Origin: an uncultured Parachlamydiaceae bacterium
Lineage (GTDB): Bacteria > Chlamydiota > Chlamydiia > Chlamydiales > Parachlamydiaceae
Direction of reading: 5' to 3'
Length of the DNA stretch: 64,000 nt
Assembly (NCBI GenBank): GCA_963703185.1
Contig: OY969795.1
Span: 375,968 to 439,967 of the forward strand
Position 1 is the stretch's first letter, and every line of letters begins with the position of its first letter. Below the pieces are notes generated by a model that saw only the letters and a program-made list of their open reading frames with translations, searched no databases and was not told where the DNA came from. The position numbers and the translations under genes are program-made. This document shows positions 57,301-59,894 of this stretch, in pieces.

Positions 57301-59894
57301 TTCTCAATCATCCGATTCTTTTAACGGATGCTAAAAACAATCAAACACACACCACTCATTTCTATGATCGCGGTCATCCTTATTCAGAAACAGTGGATCC
57401 CACAGGAAATACGATCTGCATCCATAAAGATAGTTTGGACAAAATTACTCAAATTTTTGTGCGCGATCCTTATGGAGAGACGATCAAGCAAGCTGATTAT
57501 TTTTATGATTTGCAAGGTAATAAATCAAAAGTTGTGGAAAAAGTGGTTGCTCACAATTCACCCGACCGAGAAATTATCACCCGTTGGACCTACGACTGCA
57601 TGAAACGTGTCACACTTTGCACAGATGCTTGCGGAACACCTGAACAAATGTCTACACACTATCGCTATCTTCCAAATGGAACGCTTGCCGGCATCGCCAA
57701 AGGCAACAGCGTTGAACTTTTGCATGAATATGATGCCCTTGGCAGACTTGTTTCTTTTCAAGGATCAGATCATTCGTTCCACTATATCTATGCCTATGAT
57801 CTCAGCAATAATCCGATTCAAGTTAAGGATTTGATCAATCAAACCGAAATCAATAGATCGTTTGATGATAACAATCGTCTGCGCGAAGAACTTTTACCTA
57901 ATAAACTACTTTCAAAGTACACCTACGACCGAATCGGCCGAGTGGTTAAACTACAGCTGCCGGATAGTAGTTTTATTGAGTACGATTATCAAGGGCTTCT
58001 TTTACAGCATATTCATCGCAAAGACAAAAGCGGCGCGATCAAATATACGCATACCTATGATCAATACGATCAAAGTCACAATTTGTTAGCCATGACCTTG
58101 CCTGGAAATGCCGGAAAAGTCGCTTTTGATTATGACTGCCTGAACCAACCCACATCGATTCACGCGCCGCAATGGAATGAAATCGCGCATGATTATGATG
58201 CTGTAGGCAATGTCCTTCAAAAAACCTCCACTGATTCTTTAGGCGCTTACACCAGTCAGTTTGCCTATGATGGGATGTATCAGCTCATTTCGGAAAGAGG
58301 AGTCTTTTCACACGATTACACAAATGACTCCGTTTATAATCACATTCAAAAAGATGGGCATTCACAGCAGTTTAATGCGCTTAATCAGTTGCTCGCAGAT
58401 GCGACTTCAACCTACGAGTATGACGCAAATGGAAACTTGAAAAGTCTGATTAGGAACTCTGAAAAACAAACATTTGATTACGATGCCCTTGGAAGACTCA
58501 CACGGGTCACTACACAGGATAAACAATATTGCTATCAATATGATGCTTTTAACCGCCGCATGAGTAAAACATGCCTCGCATGGAATGGAGAGGCGTGGGC
58601 AAAGGTGAATCAAGAGTTATACCTCTATAACGGCGGAAATGAAATCGGGTCGACAAATGAAAAGACCGAACTGCAGGAACTGCGCGTTTTGGGAATGATC
58701 AAACAGATCGAACAAGGATCTAACGCCGCGATTGAACTGCAAGAAGAAGTGTTGGTGCCGATTAATGATCTTCGCGGAAATACCGCCTGTCTTGTTGACC
58801 TTGAAGGCAAAGTCGTTGAATTTTATCGGTATAGTTCTTATGGAGATGAGGAAATCTACGATGCCTCAGGGCAGGTTGTTAAACACAGCCGCAACCCTTG
58901 GCGCTTTGCCGGAAAACGAAAAGACGCCGAAACCGGCTTCATCTTTTTTGGAGAACGCTATTATTCCACGCATACCTATAGCTGGATCACTCCCGATCCC
59001 ATTCATCATGAAGGAGGTCCAAATCTCTATGCCTATGTAATGCATAATCCCCTATCTGTCTGGGATTCATATGGAGAAACGGGTGAATATATCTTTCCCT
59101 ATCTTCCCCCTTCATTATATGAGCTGGCACGGCCCTGCAGAGCTTTTTGCCTGACTGGAGATAGCGGCTATTCCATGCCGTACCTCCCTGATTTTGAACA
59201 TTTCGCAGACGAAAAATCTCATTGTTTTGATCTCGGACGATATGAACTGCCAGACTTCAGAATTACTTTTGCCAATGGAATTTGGAATTCACCTTTAATT
59301 TGTCGCGAAAATTCGACTCATATTTCCGATTTATGCGGTGGTTATAACGTCCATGCCATTTACAATTCCTCATATGGAGGGCCTGGAGATTTTATTGAAT
59401 GTGGACTTGGCGCTATGGGCGTTGCAACGCCTCCTGTATTTGAATTGTATCGCTCATGGACTGAATATTTTGATTCTAATGAAAAAAATGCGAGAATACT
59501 ACATTTTACATCGAGTGGGGGAGCTATTAATACCTACAATGCTCTATTATTAATCGATTCAGCATATGCTCAAAGAATATATGTTGTCAGTATTGAAGGT
59601 GCTATGTTGATACCAAAAAAACTTGCGGGTGAGGTTAAAAATTATGTTAATGGTAACATTATTAGAGATGTTGTTCCCTATGTACACAGAATAATTGATG
59701 TTATCGCAAAGCCATCTTTTGTGAGTATTAAAAATTACATCGTTGAAAATTATACTAATGAATATAATATCTCTTATGTCAATTCATCGACCAATGCGCC
59801 TTTATTCGATCACGCTATTACAAGCCCAACTTATAAGGATATTATCAGCAAAGAGTATGATGATTTCTTAATATGGAAAAATTCATGCAAATAA
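54356..59894 (+). CDS. Rhs/YD-repeat polymorphic toxin with Sec signal peptide, split by a +1 frame change in a T8 run
   Basis: ORFs 54356-54646 (signal peptide MKRSIFLLLCFCIHLYADDD) and 54606-59894 (1762 aa). Many YD repeats (YRYDLTGNRI, YKYDDFGRVI, YNYDSAGRLI, YEYDANGNLK, FDYDALGRLT). Core-end motif GERYYSTHTYSWITPDP...NLYAYVMHNPLSVWDSYGE, followed by a roughly 270-aa C-terminal domain. Confidence 0.85.

Follow-up and report, generated by a model that had tools for sequence, protein, structure and literature searches.

Zhang et al. 2012 described the toxin families Tox-ABhydrolase-1, -2, and -3 in polymorphic toxins, and reported that several toxin-domain families occur in chlamydiae and on signal-peptide RHS proteins ('T2SS', type II secretion system) (PMC3482391). 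Among type VI secretion system (T6SS) effectors, Tle1-Tle4 with their periplasmic Tli partners (Tle1 = DUF2235 = Tox-ABhydrolase-1) likewise follow a Ser-Asp-His alpha/beta-hydrolase design. Rhs toxins with alpha/beta-hydrolase tips and periplasmic immunity are an established theme rather than a new principle. A third point of comparison is the chlamydia-restricted Pfam family DUF687 (PF05095), whose members CT326 of Chlamydia trachomatis and CPn0066, 0069, 0381, and 0882 of C. pneumoniae have been listed as putative inclusion-membrane proteins (PMC3048545), and which a 2024 classification placed among the alpha/beta-hydrolase-like clusters outside the Pfam clan (PMC11878206). The present study concerns a 1762-residue Rhs protein (open reading frame 54606..59894) encoded in 64,000 nucleotides of contig OY969795.1 from an uncultured, amoeba-associated Parachlamydiaceae bacterium (GCA_963703185.1, positions 375,968 to 439,967 of the forward strand; the whole of this stretch is referred to as the window). 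Structure modelling and family alignments support the C-terminal tail of this protein, which closes with the stop codon, as an alpha/beta-hydrolase-type Ser-Asp-His domain. With a probability of roughly 60%, it represents an active serine alpha/beta-hydrolase toxin on a Sec-exported Rhs protein that would cleave an ester-linked envelope component from the periplasmic side and be neutralised by an exported or membrane-anchored immunity protein.

The carrier shows RHS repeats and an Rhs-associated core directly before a variable C-terminal domain, as in Rhs/YD-repeat polymorphic toxins. The toxin domain comprises the 271 C-terminal residues (window 59079-59891, from the translation of 59079-59894) and starts one residue past the TIGR03696 core, indicating that 59079 is the correct toxin boundary. 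Cleavage at the core motif is presumed by analogy with established knowledge on Rhs proteins. Residues of the toxin domain are given below in C-terminal (CT) numbering, in which CT residue 1 is Rhs residue 1492 at window position 59079, and pLDDT denotes the predicted local distance difference test of the structural model. The features of the carrier and its toxin domain are as follows.

54606..59078, forward strand: Rhs/YD-repeat shell of the 1762-residue open reading frame (Pfam RHS_repeat, 8 stretches, E = 5.8e-53; NCBIfam YD_repeat_2x and RHS_core).

58857..59075, forward strand: Rhs-associated core domain, carrying the C-terminal motif of the self-cleavage type, PDPIHHEGGPNLYAYVMHNPLSVWDSYGE (TIGR03696, residues 1418-1490, E = 1.5e-17).

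59079..59213, forward strand: CT residues 1-45, a linker or an extension at the N-terminus of the toxin domain (pLDDT 47-79; homologues mostly align from about CT residue 45).

59214..59891, forward strand: predicted alpha/beta-hydrolase core of the toxin domain, CT residues 46-271 (AlphaFold2 model, Foldseek PDB matches, family alignments, and DUF687 matches in aligned members).

59274..59279, forward strand: N66-G67 in the F-x-N-G motif, candidate oxyanion-hole loop directly after strand 60-65, with a putative role.

59514..59516, forward strand: S146 (Rhs residue 1637) in T-S-S-G-G, predicted nucleophile, at the end of strand 139-146 and before helix 147-158 (codon checked).

59667..59669, forward strand: D197 (Rhs residue 1688) in the R-D-V-V-P motif, predicted triad acid; the loop that holds it follows strand 185-191.

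59811..59813, forward strand: H245 (Rhs residue 1736) in F-D-H, predicted triad His; its loop joins strand 231-234 to the terminal helix 250-269.

The AlphaFold2 model of the toxin domain, obtained with a 20-sequence alignment (A2) as input, reached a pLDDT of 87 and a predicted template modelling score (pTM) of 0.85. The elements of its first half follow one another as strand 60-65, N66-G67, helix 72-85, strand 91-95, helices 101-133, and strand 139-146 ending in S146, and those of its second half as helix 147-158, strand 167-174, strand 185-191, D197, a set of helices including a low-confidence insertion, strand 231-234, H245, and helix 250-269. This modelled order is the canonical alpha/beta-hydrolase order, and no lid domain was predicted. 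In addition, the Foldseek comparison listed 32 PDB entries at E <= 1e-3, and every one is an alpha/beta hydrolase (a cutinase in 31 cases, the tautomycetin polyketide thioesterase in one), with template modelling (TM) scores of about 0.5 by target length. Carboxylesterase 4ftw (TM-score by query length 0.45), dienelactone hydrolase 1zi6/1din (0.46), and pikromycin thioesterase lay just above the E cut-off. A profile search against PDB sequences gave as its best match the carboxylesterase MGS0156, with an alignment spanning the nucleophile elbow (E = 0.03), and a direct sequence search of the PDB produced noise only (DPP3, E = 0.047). The assignment of the tail to the alpha/beta hydrolases in a preliminary description, made from the letters of the DNA and proposing structure prediction as a check, is thus borne out by both the model and the Foldseek matches.

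The same description had quoted four ordered motifs in the tail, DFRITFANGIWNS, NVHAIYNSSYGGPGDFIECG, ILHFTSSGGAINTYNALLL, and APLFDHAITSP. All four were found in the translated region after the end of the Rhs core, and they correspond to the conserved blocks of a homologue family in both alignment A2 and an 88-sequence alignment of representatives clustered at 50% identity, rather than to chance occurrences. In the latter alignment, G67, S146, D197, and H245 were conserved in 88/88 sequences, D104, W127, and D244 in 86/88, G148 in 85/88, and N66 in 84/88. Consistent with the nucleophile elbow of the alpha/beta-hydrolase superfamily, T144-S145-S146-G147-G148 lies between a strand and a helix, and the second Ser of TSSGG is the invariant one, so that the proposed elbow was recovered as described. 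The family consensus of the elbow is C-H-S-Q-G-A, with C, T, or A at its first position across the family, and the copy in the window reads T-S-S-G-G-A. The positions of D197 after strand 185-191 and H245 after strand 231-234 match the Ser-acid-His order. As judged from the model and the alignment, the triad acid is most likely D197, which is favoured because it is invariant and occupies the post-beta7 position. The acid/His pair earlier read in APLFDHAITSP therefore held for its His, and its acid was better placed in RDVVP, a motif that had gone unlisted. D244, despite its conservation, was rejected as the acid because it lies outside the canonical acid position. A disulfide involving the frequently conserved Cys positions 108, 144, and 183 was also considered and dropped, since no clear co-variation was seen.

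An exhaustive HMMER search of 1.84 billion cluster representatives revealed 1014 homologues at E <= 1e-3, 319 of them at E <= 1e-10. A word-indexed protein search found nothing with the single toxin domain and only 5 proteins with the family alignment, and a plasmid tblastn search found nothing. Among the 94 homologues that cover the domain fully, the domain ends within 36 residues of the protein C-terminus in every case and within 11 residues in 92. The carriers are often about 1,500-2,900 residues long, and RHS repeats were detected by Pfam in 4 of 10 homologues tested (P0004, P0005, P0013, and P0034), the longest two of these repeat-positive proteins having 1740 and 2773 residues; in all, six homologues proved Rhs-positive when tested. 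Furthermore, a genome scan with a tighter 7-sequence alignment (A3), which is biased toward the main CHSQGA subgroup, yielded 42 loci. These derive mostly from metagenome-assembled genomes of Chlamydiota, assigned to Parachlamydiaceae, Waddliaceae, or Rhabdochlamydiaceae or with no finer label than Chlamydiota, Chlamydiae, Chlamydiia, or Chlamydiales; three have 'uncultured bacterium' as their sole label, and six carry the labels of other phyla and are possibly mis-binned. Of the 30 loci whose 4-kb upstream flank is complete, 23 keep the reading frame open for more than 1500 residues and show YxYD repeats in it. Most full-length members have a Sec-type signal peptide at the start, and a DUF6531-like VNxITGxY...PGxEPL motif comes after it.

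DUF687 was the only sequence family detected for the toxin-domain family. It was matched by 14 of the 20 aligned members at E <= 0.01 (best E = 8e-15, covering roughly positions 32-208 of the 537-position profile), 13 of the 19 homologues being counted as matches, and its 25-bit gathering score was reached by 5 of 10 homologues tested, the window's own copy not being assignable by the model. Among the database relatives, one bears the name 'DUF687 family protein [Chlamydiales bacterium]', a few homologues gave weak Pfam matches to Palm_thioest, Hydrolase_4, and DUF3089, and neither the window's domain nor its homologues matched an NCBIfam family. Judged by these profile similarities, the wider toxin-domain family is related to DUF687. 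The architectures differ, however. DUF687 proteins have about 540-620 residues, with the hydrolase-like part at the N-terminus and a bundle of transmembrane helices thereafter (PMC11878206, PMC3048545), whereas the toxin domain forms the extreme C-terminus of an Rhs protein, lacks a transmembrane bundle, keeps Ser, Asp, and His, and is accompanied by an immunity partner. On sequence grounds, the family found here is thus a relative of DUF687 with intact predicted catalytic residues and without the transmembrane bundle.

This relationship raises the question of whether the toxin domain could be a catalytically dead binding or scaffold module, as proposed for DUF687. The 2024 classification describes every DUF687 member as devoid of catalytic residues and as ending in a transmembrane bundle (PMC11878206), and the elbow of the window's copy is atypical (TSSGG versus CHSQG). 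Nevertheless, Ser, Asp, and His are invariant in the 88 representatives, the window's copy included, and a dedicated immunity gene is conserved beside the Rhs-borne domain, with which an inert domain is hard to reconcile. We therefore regard a dead module as highly improbable.

In comparison with Tle1-Tle4, the toxin family has in common an adjacent exported or lipoprotein immunity gene and a predicted action on the envelope from the periplasmic side. Membership of Tle1-4 was nevertheless rejected by sequence: neither the domain nor its homologues matched DUF2235 or any other Tle-associated Pfam family, and the elbow is (C/T)-x-S-x-G instead of G-x-S-x-G. Moreover, the carrier is an Rhs protein with a Sec signal in place of a VgrG/PAAR-linked T6SS effector, and the immunity family is unrelated to any family in the searched libraries. 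No PAAR domain was found in the family members examined, and T6SS genes were looked at within the 64-kb window only. Tox-ABhydrolase-2 and -3 are also alpha/beta-hydrolase C-terminal domains of polymorphic toxins, including RHS proteins, and Tox-ABhydrolase-2 has been noted in a Parachlamydia (PMC3482391). They are reported mainly from proteobacteria or other phyla, in contrast to the chlamydia-centred family here, and their immunity proteins are of the cytoplasmic type (SUKH, Imm66, and Imm69, with none in Parachlamydia; PMC3482391), whereas a predicted exported immunity protein is present here. These differences lie in the published descriptions, and by sequence the toxin family may still belong to one of the two.

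Fungal and bacterial cutinases (e.g., 1cus, 5ajh, and 7cy9), minimal lid-less alpha/beta hydrolases, were the best structural matches. Their elbow, G-Y-S-Q-G-A, is similar to the family C-H-S-Q-G-A. They differ from the toxin domain in sequence (9-16% identity, TM-scores of about 0.36-0.40 by query length, no Pfam Cutinase match), and the toxin domain has extra N-terminal strands and, in the window's copy, a 17-residue insertion. That the closest structures are cutinases, polyketide thioesterases, dienelactone hydrolase, and carboxylesterase rather than classical lipases speaks for an alternative in which the domain would be an active serine hydrolase of the envelope other than a (phospho)lipase, i.e., a thioesterase or deacylase of lipoproteins or lipooligosaccharide, a peptidoglycan O-acetyl esterase, or a peptidase. 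The lid-less model is in keeping with this alternative, and one homologue aligns with palmitoyl-protein thioesterase over about 150 residues (E of about 1e-4 to 9e-4). However, lid-less cutinase-like enzymes hydrolyse lipid esters too, and nothing was found that indicates a specific non-lipid substrate. To our knowledge, all characterised alpha/beta-hydrolase effectors with periplasmic immunity (Tle1-4) are phospholipases or lipases. On balance, a non-lipase activity appears rather improbable.

Downstream of the toxin domain, two candidate immunity genes were identified.

59873..60421, forward strand: imm1, 182-residue candidate immunity protein bearing both a signal peptide and the lipobox LLSSC (homologues lie at the toxin stop in related loci).

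60423..60989, forward strand: imm2, 188-residue paralogue of imm1 (23% identity, E = 1e-7) with a hydrophobic N-terminus and no canonical lipobox.

The start of imm1 overlaps the Rhs stop codon and imm2 begins one base after imm1, suggesting co-translation. A homologue of imm1 starts at the toxin stop in 36 of the 42 related loci (E from 2.4e-07 to 1e-30), often in 2-6 tandem copies, and the six loci without one are contig ends or belong to the two most distant members. Neither known families nor known folds were recovered for these proteins: imm1 had no Pfam, NCBIfam, or PADLOC match above the curated cut-off (sub-threshold matches only, E 0.03-0.085), the profile of the immunity family gave only noise against the PDB, and a model of imm1 from three sequences, of moderate confidence (pLDDT 74), had no significant PDB fold match (best E = 0.1). 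The immunity-family profile A4, which includes imm1 and imm2, found nothing beyond these two in the window and no copy at all in 8 related loci. Elsewhere in the same genome, which is a single contig of 2.67 Mb, imm2 has a paralogue with 92% identity, which plausibly follows the orphan Rhs fragment described below. In one related locus (L034, 162-4396), five to six tandem genes of the immunity family surround a short toxin-domain remnant (1424-1786), an array that looks like an immunity island.

The preliminary description had proposed lipoprotein immunity, and this applies to imm1 and not to imm2. In the immunity family, an N-terminal hydrophobic segment was present in 31 of 46 members and a PROSITE-type lipobox in 9 of 46, imm1 among them. 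As such, 'exported or membrane-anchored' is the safer description of this predicted localisation, and an exported immunity family fits a periplasm- or membrane-directed toxin.

Further features of the locus lie upstream of the main Rhs open reading frame and downstream of imm2.

54356..54646, forward strand: 96-residue open reading frame, the true Rhs N-terminus, with the Sec-type signal peptide MKRSIFLLLCFCIHLYADD and a DUF6531-like start (Pfam DUF6531, E = 2.8e-5).

54615..54622, forward strand: C4T4 run with an apparent 1-nt insertion shifting the frame between the signal-peptide open reading frame and the main Rhs open reading frame (three-frame translation compared with P0077).

61063..61946, reverse strand: split transposase remnants of a degraded insertion sequence (IS) element between the main and orphan modules (HTH_Tnp_4 and C-terminal DDE_Tnp_4 in two separate open reading frames).

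62203..64000, forward strand: orphan Rhs 3' fragment running off the window, an 801-residue open reading frame with a variant toxin domain of the same family (DNA alignment).

At the frameshift, where P0077 reads ...QRFYCSSDTRFKKREQAWKFNHDI, translation of the window gives QRFFCSSDFNVDS in one frame and LFRAWKFNHDI in the following one. The shift may stem from a genuine mutation, from slippage, or from an error in sequencing. A T8 run at 54581-54588 was rejected as the frameshift site, as it reads correctly as QRFFC. The orphan corresponds to protein P0001 (801 residues), with which it is identical at 599/599 residues over the part inside the window. Compared with the main copy, 45-50 of every 50 residues of the orphan are identical up to about residue 600 and 38-42 of 50 thereafter. 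Its core is about 99% identical to that of the main gene and its toxin domain about 80%. The drop in identity comes just past the FANG motif, suggesting that a recombination breakpoint lies there, within the toxin domain. With an adjacent gene of predicted immunity function and an orphan module, as known from Rhs polymorphic toxins, the locus has the classic layout of a main toxin and a displaced variant module.

Members of the family that are not fused to Rhs bear on where the enzyme acts. A 290-residue stand-alone protein (P0152, locus L043) and a 467-residue non-Rhs protein (P0036, locus L046) carry the hydrolase domain, as do proteins of about 370 residues at L039 3470-4582 and L040 3443-4582, in which an Inc-type (inclusion-membrane) bilobed hydrophobic hairpin precedes it. 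The latter two keep Ser, Asp, and His in the motif set SHSQGA / RDPVP / SH, and are by sequence candidate catalytically active inclusion-membrane hydrolases. An immunity-family profile search of the loci of these non-Rhs-fused members found no immunity gene nearby. One and the same enzyme domain thus appears both in proteins that are likely directed at the host and in Rhs toxins linked to immunity genes.

These proteins without immunity genes are in favour of the alternative that the Rhs-borne domain is itself a host-directed effector, acting on lipids or acylated proteins of the amoeba or of the inclusion membrane, with the exported neighbours protecting the producer's envelope during Sec transit. 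In line with this alternative, the source organism is an obligate intracellular member of the Parachlamydiaceae, its Rho sharing 84-89% identity with proteins of Protochlamydia and Parachlamydiaceae, and it encodes F-box and BTB proteins; moreover, a location in the inclusion membrane is predicted for the related DUF687 proteins of Chlamydia (PMC3048545). On the other hand, tight linkage to an immunity gene is limited to the Rhs-borne form, the immunity genes occur in tandem arrays of up to 5-6 copies (L034), and they are accompanied by orphan variant toxin modules, a combination that, according to Zhang et al. 2012 (PMC3482391), constitutes a signature of between-strain conflict and not of an effector aimed at the host. 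A host-directed role of the Rhs-borne form is accordingly considered unlikely.

Under the preferred reading of an envelope-directed toxin, the domain would be a small lid-less alpha/beta hydrolase with S146, D197, and H245 as its triad, packed inside the Rhs shell and freed via the conserved C-terminal self-cleavage motif of the Rhs core. After delivery to a target cell, the freed toxin would hydrolyse an ester bond in a molecule of the cell envelope from the periplasmic side, a membrane phospholipid being the most probable substrate, and imm1 and imm2, exported or membrane-anchored, would neutralise it in the producer and its kin.

Several observations weigh against this reading. The triad geometry is deduced from topology and conservation. 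The Foldseek TM-scores were moderate (0.36-0.46 by query length), so that the fold class is established and the specific enzyme family is not, and no lipase family was preferred over cutinases or thioesterases; of the lipase/esterase type named in the preliminary description, a fold of serine esterase, lipase, or thioesterase type is supported, a lipase in particular being one possibility among these. The window's copy is off-consensus at the conserved non-catalytic positions C144T, H145S, Q147G, H99Y, R164A, A173E, and P174G, and its toxin domain had no match in direct Pfam (none at E <= 1), NCBIfam, and PADLOC searches. These off-consensus positions, together with the 17-residue insertion relative to the family, probably explain why this copy misses every curated model. 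In addition, the apparent frameshift parts the main Rhs copy from its signal peptide, and the copy may therefore be inactive, unless the shift is bypassed or is an error of sequencing; besides such an error, a pseudogene or phase variation would account for the shift. A periplasmic immunity protein, moreover, may only guard the producer while the Sec-exported toxin is in transit, and would not by itself prove a bacterial target. Finally, no delivery route of chlamydial Sec-exported Rhs proteins is known to us, a point on which no dedicated literature search was made.

With about 1000 representative clusters, the toxin family is large; it is apparently uncharacterised, mostly missing from curated libraries, and concentrated in Chlamydiota, and it brings its own uncharacterised immunity family; both families appear to be undescribed in the literature searched. 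They point to a possible function for DUF687, to which predicted inclusion-membrane proteins of human pathogens belong, and provide a case in which strain-versus-strain competition among obligate intracellular bacteria could be examined. A broader idea, tentative and rather doubtful at present, is that a chlamydia-specific family of active hydrolases related to DUF687 is put to two uses, as inclusion-membrane or secreted proteins against the host and, on Sec-exported Rhs proteins with immunity partners, as inter-strain weapons. If true, obligate intracellular chlamydiae would practise T6SS-independent, Rhs-mediated interbacterial antagonism, and the 'dead' DUF687 Inc proteins of pathogenic Chlamydia would derive from an active lipid-directed enzyme. 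These obligate intracellular bacteria are generally not thought to carry a T6SS, a point checked here within the window only.

The source organism carries many IS elements. A 4072-bp segment with two DDE transposase genes (577 and 455 residues) occurs twice at 100% identity (1721-5792 and 11901-15972), with IS66-type and IS21-type (IstB) transposases near these repeats at 10009-11934 and 16289-18769. The eukaryote-like F-box and BTB/BACK domain proteins are encoded on the reverse strand at 6153-7502 and 25659-27248; these ubiquitination-related families have reportedly undergone expansion in Parachlamydiaceae and Neochlamydia (PMC4209131). The two forward-strand genes immediately upstream of Rhs encode a 405-residue Lys/Glu-rich open reading frame without a family match (51905-53122) and a 216-residue outer-membrane beta-barrel protein (OMP_b-brl, E = 1.2e-11; 53260-53910).

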